Below, in pieces: positions 1 to 37,981 of a DNA stretch of 44,688 nt. The notes under the pieces were generated by a model that worked only from the letters and a program-made list of their open reading frames with translations, was not told where the DNA came from and did not search any database. A program made the position numbers and the translations under genes. Where the stretch lies: the sequence record PX880098.1; one strand, given 5' to 3'. This stretch comes from a phage. Numbering within the stretch: the first letter of the stretch is position 1; the number at the start of each line of letters is the position of its first letter.

Positions 1-1227
1 ATGTTGCTTCTCCCCCACCAATACGAGCTATTGGCAGATACCACGACAAAGATAATCGGGCTGTGTTCCGGATTCGGGGGTGGTAAAACGTACAGTGCCG
101 CGCGTAAAGCGGTGCATCTGGCTCTTCTCAACCCTGGCGTAGACGGAATAATAACAGAGCCGACGTTCCCTCTGTTGGTGCAGGTTATGTTTCCAGAACT
201 TATGGCGGCGCTGGACTTCTTCGGCGTCAAATACAAGTTCAACAAGGTCGAGTCTATTTTTTATTGCGACATCAATGGCCAAACAACCCGTATTATTTGC
301 GGAAGCATGGAGAACTATCAGCGACTTATCGGTATAAACGCCGCGTGGTGTGTGTGCGACGAGTTTGATACCGCTAAGCAAGAAACGGCTTATGCCGCGT
401 ACATGAAGCTGCTGGGTCGTCTTCGCAGGGGTAACGTGCGTCAATTGGTAATAGTGTCCACCCCCGAGGGATTCAGGGCTATGTACCAGATATTCGTAAC
501 CGAAGCAGATGCCAGCAAACGGCTAATACGAGCGAAGACAACCGATAACTACCACTTGCCGGCAGACTACGTAGAGTCAATGCGCAGCCAGTACCCTGAG
601 CAACTCATAAACGCCTACCTGAATGGCGAGTTCGTAAACCTTACATCTGGGGTTGTGTATTACGGGTATCAACGGGGTAAATGTGAATCTAACGAAACTA
701 TTAAACCGGGTGAACCGCTATACATTGGGCAGGATTTTAACGTCGGCAAAATGGCGTCGTGCGTTTATGTAAAACGCGGTGCTGATTTTCATGCGGTAGC
801 CGAGTTGGTCGACCTTTTTGATACCCCTGATGTAGTTCGCGTTATCAAGGAGCGGTGGGCCGGGCATCATATAATTATGTACCCAGACGCCAGCGGACGT
901 AACCGTAAAAGCAACTCCGCTTCCACATCTGACATAGCTATCCTGGAGCAAGCAGGATTTGAGATTAGAGCTAAATCAAAGAACCCACCTGTGAAAGACC
1001 GTGTTGCCGCTAGTAACGCCGCATTTGAGAAAGGTAGAGTCTTTGTTAACTCGAAGGCTTGCCCAGCAACGACACGTGGGTTAGAGCAGCAGGCCTACGA
1101 TAAAAACGGTGAACCAGAGAAGAATGGTGTAATCGACCATATGGTTGACGCCGCGACATATTTGATCGCTTACGAGATGCCAGTAGTTAAACCTGTCATT
1201 AATATACCGGTTACTTTCGCTCTCTAA
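1..1227 (+). CDS. terL: terminase large subunit
   Basis: 408-aa ORF; Walker A P-loop GFGGGKT near the N-terminus; first gene of the head block, directly upstream of a portal-sized ORF; preceded by terS and HNH at the other window end. Confidence 0.8.
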   Translation: MLLLPHQYELLADTTTKIIGLCSGFGGGKTYSAARKAVHLALLNPGVDGIITEPTFPLLVQVMFPELMAALDFFGVKYKFNKVESIFYCDINGQTTRIICGSMENYQRLIGINAAWCVCDEFDTAKQETAYAAYMKLLGRLRRGNVRQLVIVSTPEGFRAMYQIFVTEADASKRLIRAKTTDNYHLPADYVESMRSQYPEQLINAYLNGEFVNLTSGVVYYGYQRGKCESNETIKPGEPLYIGQDFNVGKMASCVYVKRGADFHAVAELVDLFDTPDVVRVIKERWAGHHIIMYPDASGRNRKSNSASTSDIAILEQAGFEIRAKSKNPPVKDRVAASNAAFEKGRVFVNSKACPATTRGLEQQAYDKNGEPEKNGVIDHMVDAATYLIAYEMPVVKPVINIPVTFAL

Positions 1228-1246: not shown

Positions 1247-1272
1247 AAAAAGCCGCTTAATTGCGGCTTTTG
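1247..1272 (+). terminator. stem-loop after terL
   Basis: AAAGCCGC-TTAATT-GCGGCTTTT hairpin just after the stop codon; T run is short. Confidence 0.4.
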
Positions 1273-1375
1273 CCGTGGGTGAGATTCCTTAGTGCAACTA
1301 TCGTGTGATACCCTGTCAGCACTAGGCGGGCGAATTCTTGCGCCCTGATATAGCCAACATGAGGGCCAGCGAACA

Positions 1376-3092: not shown

Positions 3093-3120
3093 TTCTTTAT
3101 ATCCTCGTTTCGATAACTGA

Positions 3121-3149
3121 ATAGTACCCTATTATATTGGTGTCTGCAA
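3121..3149 (-). promoter_or_regulatory. sigma70-like promoter, family B (TTGCAG-N17-TACTAT)
   Basis: Minus-strand reading TTGCAGacaccaatataatagggTACTATTCA; 17-nt spacer; contains ATAG-N4-CTAT; upstream of the 71-aa gene. Confidence 0.55.
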
Positions 3150-3193
3150 ATATTATTTTTATGCGTTACACTGGTGATACTACAGGAGGGCCT

Positions 3194-4237
3194 ATGAGCT
3201 TACTTACATCCCTAATCAGCCACCAGATATGGCTGCAACGCACCGCATCCGGTGAAGTGAAAGACCTTGCGCCGTTTCTTCAGGAAATGCGGGACGAAAT
3301 CAAACAGCAGGTGCTGTTATTCGGTGACGACGGGCGAAGCACCGCGCGGTTGAATAAATTGTTACGCGACCTTGAAGAAGCACTGACCGGGATTACGGAC
3401 GACTGGCAGACAAAGCTGGCAGAAGACCTCAAAGAACTGGCAGCGTACGAGGCCGAGTGGAACGTAAAGACACTGACAGCCAACGTTAACGCGGAATTTG
3501 TTACGCCTACTGCCGAGCAAGTGTGGGCCGCCGCCGAGTTTCAACCTCTGTCACTAAGTGACAAGCCTGTCGATTTCACCAAGCTGATGTCTGGTTGGGG
3601 TGAAACGGAGGTGGCGCGCCTGGTAACTGGCGTTAAGATGGGCTTTGTTCAAGGCAAGACTACACGGCAGATTGTAAAAGAAGTAGTCGGTAAAGGCGGG
3701 CTGGCTGACGTATCGGAGAAATACGCAGCTACGGTAATCCGCACCGCGCTGTCTCACGTGTCCAATGAAGCACGCAACGAGACGTACCGCCAGAACGACG
3801 ACATCATCGAGAAGTATGAGTGGGTGTCAACGCTGGACAGCCGTACCAGTACGATTTGCAGAGCCCGGGACGGAATGACGTGGGAAATTGGTAAAGGGCC
3901 AATGCCCCCAGCCCATCCGAATTGTCGGTCGTGCACGGCCCCGGTAATCAGTTCAGAGTTCGACTTCCTCGATAAAGGTGCAAAACGTGCGGCTAAGGGT
4001 GCGGACGGGGGTACTCAGGTTAGCGCAGACACAACCTATTACGAGTTCCTGAAACAACAACCGGCATGGTTTCAGGATGAAGCACTCGGCCAGGTTCGGG
4101 GTAAGATTTTCCGCAACAGCGGTATATCACCGGAAGAGTTTCGCGTAATATCTGTAGATGGTTTCGGGAATCCGCTCACGCTTAAGCAGATGGCGGAACT
4201 CGATAAACGTGTTGCTGATTATCTGAAAGGGGAATAA
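3194..4237 (+). CDS. head morphogenesis protein (Mu gpF / SPP1 gp7-like)
   Basis: Follows portal; C-terminal region with PMPPAHPNCRSC resembles Mu F-like minor head proteins; start chosen at ATG 3194 after GGAGGG; listed ORF begins at TTG 3137 inside the promoter. Confidence 0.6.
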   Translation: MSLLTSLISHQIWLQRTASGEVKDLAPFLQEMRDEIKQQVLLFGDDGRSTARLNKLLRDLEEALTGITDDWQTKLAEDLKELAAYEAEWNVKTLTANVNAEFVTPTAEQVWAAAEFQPLSLSDKPVDFTKLMSGWGETEVARLVTGVKMGFVQGKTTRQIVKEVVGKGGLADVSEKYAATVIRTALSHVSNEARNETYRQNDDIIEKYEWVSTLDSRTSTICRARDGMTWEIGKGPMPPAHPNCRSCTAPVISSEFDFLDKGAKRAAKGADGGTQVSADTTYYEFLKQQPAWFQDEALGQVRGKIFRNSGISPEEFRVISVDGFGNPLTLKQMAELDKRVADYLKGE

Positions 4238-14208: not shown

Positions 14209-14249
14209 GCTGTAGCTCCTGTTTGAGTTAACATTGTTAGTGTAAGTGA

Positions 14250-14278
14250 ATAGTATCCTATTATGTTGGGGAGTGCAA
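14250..14278 (-). promoter_or_regulatory. sigma70-like promoter, family B (TTGCAC-N17-TACTAT)
   Basis: Minus-strand reading TTGCACtccccaacataataggaTACTATTCAC, almost identical to the plus-strand copy at 36092; drives the Imm/MPE/HAD/kinase operon. Confidence 0.6.
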
Positions 14279-14385
14279 GTAATGTGTTAGAATTATTTTG
14301 CGCCTAGTGTCGCACACGAAAAGCGGGTGGTTCCCGTCTGGCGCATTAACCTTAACCAGTAACCTCTTAACCAAAGGATTAAAGA

Positions 14386-26570: not shown

Positions 26571-26858
26571 CTAACTATAATAGTATGCTATTAGGGTGTC
26601 AACCTGTTTTATAGAGCCAACCACAAAAACATTCGCACCACGTTTACGCATCCGCTCGTGTTCACGTAACTGGTGCGGGTCTGGCTTCGTGTTTTCGTCT
26701 TTCTTCACCTCGACGAACCAGACTATGCCGCCAGGGAGAATTACCAGCAGGTCAGGAGCGCCGGAACGTCCTTCGTAGGAGAGCTTACGAACGAGGCCAC
26801 CCAGGGCCTCGAATCGCCCCTTCGCATATTTCTGTACGCGCCCCTCAGGCGTACTCAT
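26571..26858 (-). CDS. VRR-NUC domain nuclease
   Basis: PD-(D/E)xK signature GAPDLLVILPGGIVWFVEVKK; SD GAGAGGGG upstream. Confidence 0.55.
   Translation of the reverse strand: MSTPEGRVQKYAKGRFEALGGLVRKLSYEGRSGAPDLLVILPGGIVWFVEVKKDENTKPDPHQLREHERMRKRGANVFVVGSIKQVDTLIAYYYS
26574..26602 (-). promoter_or_regulatory. sigma70-like promoter, family A (TTGACA-N17-TATAGT)
   Basis: Minus-strand reading TTGACAccctaatagcatactatTATAGT with AT-rich upstream region; contains ATAG-N4-CTAT. Confidence 0.6.
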
Positions 26859-30041: not shown

Positions 30042-30070
30042 ACTATAATAGCTAACTATTCAGGTGTCAA
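30042..30070 (-). promoter_or_regulatory. sigma70-like promoter, family A (TTGACA-N17-TATAGT)
   Basis: Minus-strand reading TTGACAcctgaatagttagctatTATAGT; near-identical to the copy at 32491. Confidence 0.6.
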
Positions 30071-32490: not shown

Positions 32491-32520
32491 ACTATAATAG
32501 CTAACTATTCATGTTGTCAA
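32491..32520 (-). promoter_or_regulatory. sigma70-like promoter, family A (TTGACA-N18-TATAGT)
   Basis: Minus-strand reading TTGACAacatgaatagttagctatTATAGT; divergent from the HTH gene. Confidence 0.6.
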
Positions 32521-32584
32521 TGGGCTTTTCTAAAATAATTAATATGGTACTATTCACATATCAACTGACTAAGGAGTAATTGAC

Positions 32585-35351: not shown

Positions 35352-35518
35352 TTCACGTTCTCCTTAATCCATGCTTCCACTTTCTCCGGGTCGAACGTGC
35401 CTGGCTGCCGGCGGCCCATAATGCGAATACAACAATCCGGGAACTTCCCACTCTTTAACCAGTTATTGAGCGTGCGGCGAGTAACCCCGATACGCTCAGC
35501 TACTTCATTCTGTGTCAT
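35348..35518 (-). CDS. AlpA/Xis-like HTH DNA-binding protein (56 aa), absent from ORF track
   Basis: SD AAGGAG before ATG 35518; HTH VAERIGVTRRTLNNWLKSGKFP; stop overlaps next start (ATGA). Confidence 0.6.
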   Translation of the reverse strand: MTQNEVAERIGVTRRTLNNWLKSGKFPDCCIRIMGRRQPGTFDPEKVEAWIKENVK

Positions 35519-35657
35519 CTTTAATCTCCTTAATTATTTCACGCGCTAACGCTGTAGCTGTGCCGTATTTATTGGGGCAGTATCTGCTCTCATTATGCCC
35601 ACTAAACCACGCTTCTATCAGCAACTCTTTCAACTGTTCTTCTGTCAAAGTAACCAT
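35505..35657 (-). CDS. small protein (50 aa), absent from ORF track
   Basis: First ORF after minus-strand promoter 35690-35718; SD GAGGG; overlaps downstream gene start. Confidence 0.4.
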   Translation of the reverse strand: MVTLTEEQLKELLIEAWFSGHNESRYCPNKYGTATALAREIIKEIKDDTE

Positions 35658-35689
35658 TCTCAAACCCTCATTATCAGTTAACGAAACCG

Positions 35690-35718
35690 AGTATACATTG
35701 CGAATAATGGGAAATCAA
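35690..35718 (-). promoter_or_regulatory. sigma70-like promoter (TTGATT-N17-TATACT) of the leftward operon
   Basis: Minus-strand reading TTGATTtcccattattcgcaatgTATACT; back-to-back with the plus-strand promoter at 35734. Confidence 0.5.
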
Positions 35719-35733
35719 ACACAATCGCACCTA

Positions 35734-35762
35734 TTGACATTAAGAAAATCTTCGTTTAAGGT
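35734..35762 (+). promoter_or_regulatory. sigma70-like promoter (TTGACA-N17-TAAGGT), rightward
   Basis: Consensus -35 TTGACA with 17-nt spacer and TAAGGT; no ORF for about 380 nt downstream; terminator at 35999. Confidence 0.45.
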
Positions 35763-35998
35763 GCTTCTATATCTTAGTTACTTTGATTCCTGTTCACCTT
35801 GTAAAACCCGCCGAAAACGAGCGCCCAACGCGAAGTGTTAGGCGGCAGTTTACTGAACACGAGAATTATTGTAACTTTCCGTCCTTAGTATCTCCGGTTG
35901 CCATGGGCAAGCTCTATTCTCATCGGCAGCATATCTCTTAAGTATCTGATTTTCTTAATGTGCCGTAGATTCGCAACCGTAAAAATGTAACGATTATT

Positions 35999-36026
35999 GG
36001 GCAGGCTTAAGGCCTGCCCTTTAGTT
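35999..36026 (+). terminator. intrinsic terminator in divergent control region
   Basis: GGGCAGGC-TTAAG-GCCTGCCC followed by TTTAGTT. Confidence 0.6.
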
Positions 36027-36091
36027 ACCAAGTAATAAGAATAATGGCACAACAGTTCCTAAATAATCACAACGGCAACGCAATTAATCTC

Positions 36092-36120
36092 TTGCACGCC
36101 CCAACATAATAGGATACTAT
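36092..36120 (+). promoter_or_regulatory. sigma70-like promoter, family B (TTGCAC-N17-TACTAT)
   Basis: TTGCACgccccaacataataggaTACTATTCAC; contains ATAG-N4-CTAT; upstream of the PAPS-reductase-like gene. Confidence 0.6.
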
Positions 36121-36154
36121 TCACTTATAGTGACGAGACAGAGGAGTGATGGTC

Positions 36155-36916
36155 ATGAGCAAGCCGGTAATAGCGGTCTGGTTTTCGTGTGGTGCTGCCA
36201 GTGCGGTAGCTGCAAAAATAACTATCGAGAAATACAGTCATACTCATGATGTGCGTGTGCTTAACAACCCGGTGGCAGAGGAGGACGCTGACAACATACG
36301 TTTTCTTCATGATGTTGAAAATTGGATAGGTGTGAAAATTGAATCAGTAATTAACCCTATGTTCCCGAACGCCAGCGCTGTAGAGGTCTGGGACCATCAG
36401 CGTTATATGTCCGGCATTGCTGGAGCACCATGTACGAAGGCACTTAAGAAGCTCGCCAGAAAGCATTGGGAGCAATCAAATCGCTGTGACCATATCGTGC
36501 TTGGTTTTACTGCTGATGAGGCGCATCGCGCAGATAATTTCGTCAAAAACGAAAGGCGCAGTTTGATTCCAGTTCTGATTGAAGCCGGATACACAAAAGG
36601 AGACTGCTTTCGAATCCTTCTGGAGAACGGCATTCGACTTCCTCGTATTTATCACTTGGGTTACCCAAACGCGAACTGCATAGGATGTGTAAAAGCCACA
36701 TCTCCAACCTACTGGAATCTTGTCCGTCGCGTTCATCCTGAGGTATTTGTCCAACGTGCAGAGCAATCACGACGATTGGGTGTTCGTCTTGTTAGATATT
36801 CCGGAGAGCGCATCTATCTCGACGAGTTGCCGCCAGACGCAGTTGGCCGCCCAATAAAAAGTCTTGATTTTGAATGTGGGATTTTCTGTAAACCAGCAGA
36901 TGAGGATGAAGAATGA
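36155..36916 (+). CDS. PAPS reductase-like / PP-loop ATP pyrophosphatase superfamily protein with C-terminal Cys pairs
   Basis: N-terminal VWFSCGAAS at the position of a PP-loop SGGxDS; C-terminal CIGC and CGIFC; start ATG 36155 chosen 8 nt after GAGGAG. Confidence 0.5.
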   Translation: MSKPVIAVWFSCGAASAVAAKITIEKYSHTHDVRVLNNPVAEEDADNIRFLHDVENWIGVKIESVINPMFPNASAVEVWDHQRYMSGIAGAPCTKALKKLARKHWEQSNRCDHIVLGFTADEAHRADNFVKNERRSLIPVLIEAGYTKGDCFRILLENGIRLPRIYHLGYPNANCIGCVKATSPTYWNLVRRVHPEVFVQRAEQSRRLGVRLVRYSGERIYLDELPPDAVGRPIKSLDFECGIFCKPADEDEE

Positions 36917-37634: not shown

Positions 37635-37784
37635 ATGAGAGAAGCATTCGAACGGTGGGCCGTAGTCGAGGGTCTGCCGGTTAACAAGGGTTCGAAGAAA
37701 GAGTACCTGAACGTTAAGACGCGTCTCGCGTGGCGGGCGTGGAAAGCTGGTGCGCAATTTCGTGCTGGTGTAACAGGTCAATAG
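37635..37784 (+). CDS. small basic protein (49 aa), absent from ORF track
   Basis: SD GGAGGA before ATG 37635; 49 uninterrupted codons; followed by terminator. Confidence 0.5.
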   Translation: MREAFERWAVVEGLPVNKGSKKEYLNVKTRLAWRAWKAGAQFRAGVTGQ

Positions 37785-37807
37785 GTTACTATTTTGCTTT
37801 GTGTCTT

Positions 37808-37921: not shown

Positions 37922-37950
37922 TTGCACGCTAAGATAGAATAGGCTACTAT
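37922..37950 (+). promoter_or_regulatory. sigma70-like promoter, family B (TTGCAC-N17-TACTAT)
   Basis: TTGCACgctaagatagaataggcTACTATTCAT; contains ATAG-N4-CTAT; followed by conserved leader. Confidence 0.6.
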
Positions 37951-37981
37951 TCATTTACACAAACGAGAGGAGAGACAGAAG

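Follow-up and report, generated by a model that had tools for sequence, protein, structure and literature searches.

A conserved promoter-to-hairpin unit in the early control region of Guernseyvirinae phages, a candidate locus for a non-coding RNA

Introduction

What is the purpose of an early phage promoter that is followed for about 240 nt by no convincing gene and then by a terminator-like hairpin? The question is raised by positions 35658-36154 of sequence record PX880098.1 (44,688 nt; "the window" hereafter means this whole stretch of DNA as analysed), which amounts in essence to the complete genome of a siphovirus of the Guernseyvirinae, close to Kagunavirus. The interval is the divergent early control region between two diverging early operons, and a preliminary description, made from the letters alone, had suggested that it holds a small non-coding RNA or a regulatory leader and is also a candidate replication origin.

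The Guernseyvirinae (Jerseyvirus, Kagunavirus) count among those phages of Salmonella and Escherichia coli that are isolated most frequently, and are in use in phage-therapy and biocontrol cocktails as well as synthetic-biology chassis. Database records leave their early control region blank or carry doubtful small CDSs there. If an RNA locus were defined here, the annotation of more than 440 phage genomes could be corrected, and an early non-coding RNA of a strictly lytic siphovirus would become available as a testable example. The sole Kagunavirus transcriptome, an RNA-seq study of phage K1B4 (vB_Eco_K1B4) in which annotated genes only were analysed, assigns the HTH gene beside the region to the early class (PMC12645636). 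We found no study in the literature describing this region or element.

Results

Divergent promoters in a widely conserved control region

A megablast search with positions 35500-36300 matched 366 phage records, and a blastn search with the intergenic part alone matched 448, which indicates that the region is more than a product of chance. Identity to the window is 90-93% in E. coli Kagunavirus phages and approximately 70-78% in Salmonella Jerseyvirus phages. One further Jerseyvirus-like copy, 76% identical over 447 nt, was found at positions 1983-2418 of Taishania pollutisoli scaffold22 (NZ_JACVEL010000022.1), a scaffold that also gives a full hit to model R1; the presence of this copy in a Bacteroidota assembly is probably due to phage contamination. 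The genes and promoters that frame the region are the following:

Leftward genes, minus strand: 50-aa ORF (phrog_20928), HTH_17 "excisionase-like" regulator, 77-aa protein, AAA_25 helicase-primase
35505-35657, minus strand: the extra 50-aa ORF (phrog_20928), inserted between the HTH gene and P_L
35690-35718, minus strand (read from 35718 to 35690): P_L, leftward sigma-70-type promoter, TTGATT-17-TATACT, listed by the promoter scan
35734-35762, plus strand: P_A, rightward promoter, TTGACA (35734-35739), 17-nt spacer, TAAGGT (35757-35762)
36155-36916, plus strand: first rightward gene, PAPS-reductase-like (phrog_424, E 1.3e-40), ATG at 36155

P_L serves the small ORF, the HTH_17 regulator gene and the helicase-primase operon, and its -10 (AGTATA on the plus strand) and -35 elements are invariant or equivalent across all the module types described below. 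P_A is absent from the list of the promoter scan because its -10 hexamer matches at three of six positions only. A promoter of the P_A form, TTGA[CA][AT]-16..18-TAnnnT, is nevertheless present at the same position in 51 of 51 distinct relatives, four unrelated types of promoter-proximal module included, and transcription from P_A in the window would start near 35769. The -35 hexamers of the two promoters are separated by 15 bp (35719-35733), a spacing that recurs in Jerseyvirus sequences. The preliminary description had given both promoters these coordinates and this spacing, and our analysis agrees with it in each respect.

Several features of the surroundings were observed in passing. The 50-aa ORF at 35505-35657 probably has its real start at the ATG at 35657, with GAGG upstream, and occurs only in this phage and a few relatives (L028, L029, L075, L081). 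Where the window has its PAPS-reductase-like gene, directly behind the rightward promoter and ribosome-binding site, most relatives have a gene for a small protein starting with MFKKGQLV, as if the cassette at the first early position had been swapped. An inverted repeat that is perfect over 14 nt, ACATTAAGAAAATC and GATTTTCTTAATGT, connects the -35 element and spacer of P_A (35737-35750) with the start of the conserved core described below (35948-35961; short-match search of the whole genome, E 0.035); it is retained at 13/14 positions in Bas73 and at 11/14 in K1ind1, and is absent in Jerseyvirus.

A predicted RNA with a variable hairpin, an invariant core and a terminal hairpin

Folding of the putative plus-strand RNA (35769-36027) gave -76.4 kcal/mol with a z score of -3.98, and three domains are predicted in this RNA of approximately 255 nt, namely a rod-like hairpin (P1), an unstructured core and a terminator domain. 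Its elements, together with the conserved tail that follows it, are listed here:

35776-35876, plus strand: P1, rod-like hairpin of 100 nt, MFE -34.6 kcal/mol, z -5.3
35898-35910, plus strand: P2, small hairpin UUGCC-AUG-GGCAA
35925-35998, plus strand: ultra-conserved core with UGCCGUAG in it, forming the 5' part of module B1 and predicted to have little structure
35999-36026, plus strand: predicted intrinsic terminator, hairpin GGGCAGGCUUAAGGCCUGCCC followed by UUUAGUU
36027-36062, plus strand: conserved B1 tail downstream of the terminator, AAGUAAUAAGAAUAAUGGCACAAC, 77-88% identical across genera

The base of P1 consists of the conserved helices AGUUAC/GUAACU, UGUUCA/UGAACA and GUAAA/UUUAC, in which three pairs show compensatory changes (C-G/U-A, G-C/A-U and A-U/G-C) and the remainder are invariant. 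A fourth compensatory pair in the aligned helices lies in the terminator stem, where C-G is replaced by U-A in four relatives. The apex of P1 (approximately 35804-35848) is hypervariable and is exchanged as a block between phages with about 90% identity elsewhere, giving at least six variants of 46-60 nt (46, 48, 51, 58 and 60), every one of which folds with its stem at the same position. When the Kagunavirus variants were aligned, the apical helix showed compensatory changes in four of ten pairs, with 90% of cells paired as opposed to at most 49% with the partners slid, and a covariation score of 0.34 compared with 0.17 for shuffles. Only one change, from U-A to U-G, occurs in the stem of P2, in nine Jerseyvirus sequences. 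The comparison of structures across related phages, proposed at the outset as a check, thus finds the pairing of the hairpins conserved, with compensatory changes in both P1 and the terminator stem.

Folding does not separate the two strands: RNAalifold gave -84.8 for the plus and -84.4 for the minus strand, and per-sequence energies favour the plus strand in Kagunavirus and the minus strand in Jerseyvirus, in which P1 is more stable on the minus strand. We infer that the plus strand is transcribed because of the orientation of P_A and of the U-tract. Three other readings of this stretch were tried and rejected. A minus-strand RNA across P1 would depend on an antisense promoter that occurs only in K1ind1 and is not conserved; the K1H-type apical hairpin scored 16 against the type I-E CRISPR repeat, below the shuffle maximum of 21; and GCUCUAUUCUCA, which follows P2, is by eye a poor fit to the boxA consensus, which speaks against a boxA/nut-like element.

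The core is 93-97% identical between this phage and Salmonella Jerseyvirus phages, a comparison in which the promoters are approximately 71%, the base of P1 56-71%, the apex of P1 approximately 32% and the flanks overall 56-77% identical. Of 337 records, 335 show an identity of 90% or more over module B1 as a whole. Its two to three genus-specific differences suggest slow divergence rather than a very recent transfer, and, as judged from these alignments, the block appears to have diverged along with the genera, roughly ten times more slowly than its surroundings. A 75-nt core evolving at such a rate would imply a conserved interaction partner. The segment 35895-35975 folds no better than shuffled sequence (z 0.07), and the helices predicted inside the core (helices 6-9), for which there is likewise no compensatory support, were discarded.

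The terminal hairpin has a 9-bp stem with 7 GC pairs (35999-36019) followed by TTTAGTT, and was classed as terminator-like by the hairpin scan. It is preceded by the AU-rich single strand GUAAAAAUGUAACGAUUAUU and enclosed by an outer helix, GUAAC (35986-35990) with GUUAC (36024-36028), the whole domain (35985-36029) reaching -22 kcal/mol with a z score of -4.9. The preliminary description had called this a strong terminator; its position at 35999-36026 holds, but the adjective overstates the case because the U-tract is short, with only three consecutive U residues. Given this tract and the three-of-six match of the P_A -10 hexamer, both the start and the stop of transcription could be inefficient. 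Conservation of B1 continues for about 35 nt past the terminator, and this tail is not explained by an RNA that ends near 36026.

Two observations concern B1 itself. B1-like fragments inside the small ORF at 35559-35581 are within the range of shuffled sequence and were not considered meaningful. The Jerseyvirus records templet (position 1) and celemicas (record ends) are opened inside B1, at points 16 nt apart that are equivalent to 35963/35964 and 35979/35980; this offset and the lack of a terminal repeat led us to reject a packaging site within B1, the start of these records being probably arbitrary.

Coding potential of the interval

The longest plus-strand ATG ORF between P_A and the terminator has 12 codons (35903-35941) and not 11, as had been counted previously, and no ORF is conserved, so that the earlier statement that the interval lacks a convincing ORF stands. 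If TTG and GTG starts are admitted, ORFs of up to 52-55 aa appear, namely a 52-aa TTG ORF at 35783-35941 (plus strand) and a 55-aa TTG ORF at 35885-36052 (minus strand), and these are disrupted in relatives by indels of 1, 5, 7 and 9 nt. Coding is excluded by a 1-nt indel inside B1 (AAAAA/AAAA) and by the lengths of the apex, which differ by 2, 3, 5, 7 and 9 nt. Most database records annotate nothing in the interval. The Bas73 record carries a 106-aa hypothetical CDS (3156-3476, minus strand) and that of Sciku a 35-aa CDS across the unit (1262-1369, minus strand), both of which are doubtful in view of the indels in relatives.

A mosaic of modules with a constant architecture

Phage records, IMG/VR and metagenomes yielded 89 related loci, which reduced to 51 distinct versions downstream of the HTH start codon. 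These versions present the control region as a mosaic of modules. Module A, comprising the promoters and roughly the first 170 nt of the transcript, exists in four types without detectable similarity to each other (window/K1ind1/Jerseyvirus, fBC-Eco01, Sciku and K1H), and a covariance model of the window type picks up only that type. All 51 versions combine a near-consensus -35 and a TAnnnT -10 at the same place with an ORF-free, hairpin-rich stretch of 200-280 nt, and 48 of the 51 carry a terminator-like hairpin, even where the sequence in between has been replaced by unrelated sequence. The terminal hairpin is of different kinds: the B1 hairpin that the window has, a compound one termed B2 (-32.6 kcal/mol, z -4.7) or, in Sciku, a UUCG hairpin. 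Three SETP3-like relatives have a different module, B3, and no terminator, and their RNA would therefore be a leader. The retention of one architecture despite the replacement of its sequence is the strongest argument for a functional unit that extends from promoter to hairpin. Conservation of the region in relatives, on which the preliminary description had made its proposal depend, is evident from these counts as well as from the 448 matching records.

In some Jerseyviruses (SE2, approximately 1574-2100; celemicas, 1-316; SS3e), two or three non-coding modules stand in tandem in the order B1, P_B-type promoter, B3, second P_B-type promoter and, in some cases, a further unit. B1 and B3 share a common start, GTAnCTGA..TGCCGnA(A)GATTC, and a common end, AAGAATAnAAGGCAC, which makes them look like copies of a single unit that have diverged.

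An independent promoter for the rightward genes

Downstream of B1, the first rightward gene is preceded by a promoter of its own, P_B, whose core recurs throughout the genome:

36063-36154, plus strand: module C, comprising an upstream box AATCACAACGGCAACG, P_B, a 5' UTR and the Shine-Dalgarno sequence AGAGGAG (36140-36146), then the ATG at 36155
36092-36120, plus strand: P_B, TTGCAC (36092-36097), 17 nt, TACTAT (36115-36120)
3120-3135 and 14249-14264, minus strand: P_B-core copies
26577-26594, both strands: P_B-core copy
30045-30060, 32494-32509, 32539-32554, 36106-36121, 37778-37793 and 37936-37951, plus strand: P_B-core copies

The core ATAATAGGATACTATT has 10 matches in the window, compared with 0.26 expected, and forms a palindrome, AATAG-N4-CTATT, that overlaps the -10 hexamer TACTAT. 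The copy at 14250-14281 (minus strand) shares 29 of 32 nt with 36089-36120 and serves a gene directly, without a leader of the kind seen here. Since P_B belongs to a 10-copy family of which this member works leaderless, the genes downstream do not need P_A. These copies probably define a regulon specific to the phage, with the early HTH protein perhaps as its regulator. The consensus of the "phage promoter" predicted by PHIRE in fBC-Eco01 corresponds to the P_B core (PMC9825357). The family B promoter that had been noted ahead of the first protein gene is thus corroborated.

Searches for known families and targets

The window and seven relatives covering all module types gave no match in Rfam 15 at gathering thresholds; the best sub-threshold hits were Hrs12 (19.6 bits against 70) and AS-pc01 (16.4 against 79), in which only the terminator aligned. 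A tRNA/tmRNA scan found none. A search for targets in the phage genome returned chance-level matches of 9-11 nt only, except for the 14-nt match of the RNA to the DNA of its own promoter. B1 and module A had no match in 5,426 E. coli genomes even at E <=10, in a search that detects similarities of about 22 nt or longer. A 19-mer from B1 had two hits in 185,579 species genomes, the first without further similarity and probably due to chance, and the second in the Jerseyvirus-like contig of the Taishania assembly.

Discussion

The preliminary description had offered a choice between a small non-coding RNA and a regulatory leader. What these two have in common is borne out by the conserved promoter, the ORF-free interval, the hairpin and the compensatory pairs, which do not by themselves decide between them. 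On balance, we consider it somewhat probable that the interval serves as an early transcription unit devoted to a phage-encoded non-coding RNA that has not been described previously, a reading drawn from comparison of sequences. Host sigma-70 RNA polymerase would start at P_A, near 35769, and transcribe an RNA of approximately 255-260 nt, and would mostly stop at the hairpin terminator near 36026. The rightward protein-coding genes would rely on P_B, a phage-family promoter of their own, with the terminator insulating them from the unit upstream. P1 would probably be a stability or processing element, as its apex is conserved in pairing only and not in sequence. The invariant single-stranded core would then be the working part and would recognize a conserved partner in a sequence-specific manner, either an RNA by base pairing or a protein, and the RNA may act in trans by analogy with bacterial and phage trans-acting sRNAs.

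It is tempting to speculate further that this is the first Guernseyvirinae RNA made after infection, a modular host-takeover or anti-defence RNA whose core binds or titrates a conserved enterobacterial RNA or protein and whose 5' cassette is under diversifying selection; as a whole, we regard this extension as rather unlikely. Phages that are otherwise nearly identical have indeed exchanged this 5' hairpin cassette, which comes in at least six apex variants and at least four non-homologous module types, and host defences or competition between phages could be the source of such selection.

The alternative that survives best, unlikely though we hold it to be, is a cis-acting leader or attenuator, in which transcripts from P_A continue rightward and the structured leader and a leaky terminator set the level of early read-through; put- or Q-like antitermination, or processing by RNase III at P1, could be the mechanism. 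A promoter, an ORF-free leader of approximately 200-260 nt, a terminator and then genes is the classical lambdoid layout, and the short U-tract, the SETP3-like phages whose terminator-less P1 RNA is necessarily a leader and the conservation of B1 beyond the terminator all fit it. P1 is, moreover, a long imperfect duplex of the kind that RNase III cuts, from which a link to this enzyme may be conjectured. A complete P_B, however, lies between the terminator and the genes, and its close copy at 14250-14281 works leaderless. Furthermore, the scan of six flanking ORFs, among them those for the HTH_17, AAA_25 helicase-primase and PAPS-reductase-like proteins, found no Q-family antiterminator, the HTH_17 protein being the only regulator among the genes tested, and an attenuator has no need of an unstructured, invariant 75-nt core.

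A replication origin is, in our estimation, improbable. The P1 inverted repeat, B1 or both would in that case be DNA elements for the adjacent helicase-primase, and transcription from P_A would activate or prime replication, for which the promoter-activated origins of T7, T4 and lambda are precedents. The location suits this proposal, as the region lies directly upstream of the AAA_25 helicase-primase operon, at the minimum of the cumulative GC skew (approximately 35-37 kb), and the local GC content falls to 0.35 in the lowest 100-nt window; a DNA site bound by a protein could likewise account for an unstructured segment being so strongly conserved. However, the switch in GC skew coincides exactly with the switch in gene orientation, which confounds the minimum. 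The interval contains no iterons or tandem repeats, its direct repeats being short, two-copy and chance-like families; there is no DnaA box in 35600-36200, and a lowest GC content of 0.35 does not amount to an extended AT-rich unwinding stretch. For the earlier suggestion of an origin, location and the confounded skew minimum thus speak, whereas the usual sequence hallmarks are absent. In addition, the helicase-primase is only about 65% identical between genera in which B1 is 93-97% identical, and some phages that retain a helicase-primase 85-88% identical to that of the window have a non-homologous module A.

We find it still harder to credit control purely at the level of DNA, with the blocks serving as operators for the early HTH_17 protein or host factors acting on P_L, P_A and P_B and with the transcript as a by-product. 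The gene for an early HTH regulator adjoins the region, the palindromic P_B core is repeated genome-wide, and the perfect 14-nt inverted repeat links the spacer of P_A to B1. Compensatory changes that preserve long hairpins are, however, unexpected for protein operators, the 14-nt repeat is decayed in K1ind1 and missing from Jerseyvirus, and the conserved combination of promoter and terminator would be purposeless. Finally, a small protein can practically be dismissed, as the 52-aa and 55-aa ORFs and the minus-strand CDSs annotated in Bas73 and Sciku are its only advocates, neither candidate ORF begins with ATG and no Shine-Dalgarno sequence is seen before the ATG at 35958, the ORFs span the hypervariable apex with length differences that are not multiples of three as well as the 1-nt indel in B1, and most records leave the interval without annotation.

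Returning to a non-coding RNA with its own transcription unit, the element can be compared with several known systems. It resembles a terminator-bounded sRNA of the Hfq type in that its own promoter and a hairpin terminator delimit an ORF-free RNA. Such sRNAs have a long U-tail of about six or more residues; here the tail is UUUAGUU, with the AU-rich segment ahead of the hairpin. A conserved unstructured core that could serve as a seed is present, and complementarity to it within the phage genome does not exceed chance.

The hairpins in the early transcripts of T7 that are processed by RNase III are sites between the genes of a polycistronic mRNA. Here, too, an early promoter of the host type is followed by a long duplex, P1, which is imperfect and interrupted by internal loops. 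Its predicted fold has the duplex geometry of an RNase III site (at least about 20 bp, imperfect and with internal loops), and its basal stem is conserved whereas the distal stem is free to vary. P1, a candidate for such cleavage, differs in lying inside a terminator-ended unit.

The late leader of lambda between pR' and tR', which gives the 194-nt "6S" transcript, and the put leaders of HK022 consist of a constitutive sigma-70 promoter, an ORF-free structured leader of approximately 200 nt and a terminator ahead of an operon. The order of promoter, structured ORF-free leader and terminator is the same here. In contrast to the lambdoid late leader, in which no promoter separates the terminator from the operon, the independent P_B (36092-36120) intervenes in the window; some relatives have no terminator, there is no sequence similarity, and the six flanking genes include no Q-like gene.

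The closest published annotation is that of phage fBC-Eco01 (OM272052.1), where the B1 hairpin (as a terminator) and P_B (as a "phage promoter") are marked in the homologous interval together with a host promoter (PMC9825357). These annotations are program predictions without interpretation, and no RNA gene, structure or conservation is described there (PMC9825357); module A of fBC-Eco01 is, furthermore, of a different, non-homologous type.

The phage-encoded, trans-acting sRNA LPR1/PreS of lambda regulates dnaN (bioRxiv 10.1101/2024.10.31.621285). Like the element proposed here, it is phage-encoded, short and non-coding, with its own promoter and a hairpin terminator (predicted in our case) and a conserved single-stranded stretch adjoining the 3' hairpin. 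The two have no relationship in sequence or in Rfam. The Guernseyvirinae element is much longer (approximately 255 nt), begins with a 100-nt rod hairpin, has a short U-tail and belongs to a strictly lytic siphovirus subfamily. By analogy, then, it most resembles phage trans-acting sRNAs such as PreS/LPR1 in its putative mode of action and the pR'-tR' leader of lambda in its layout, and it belongs to neither family.
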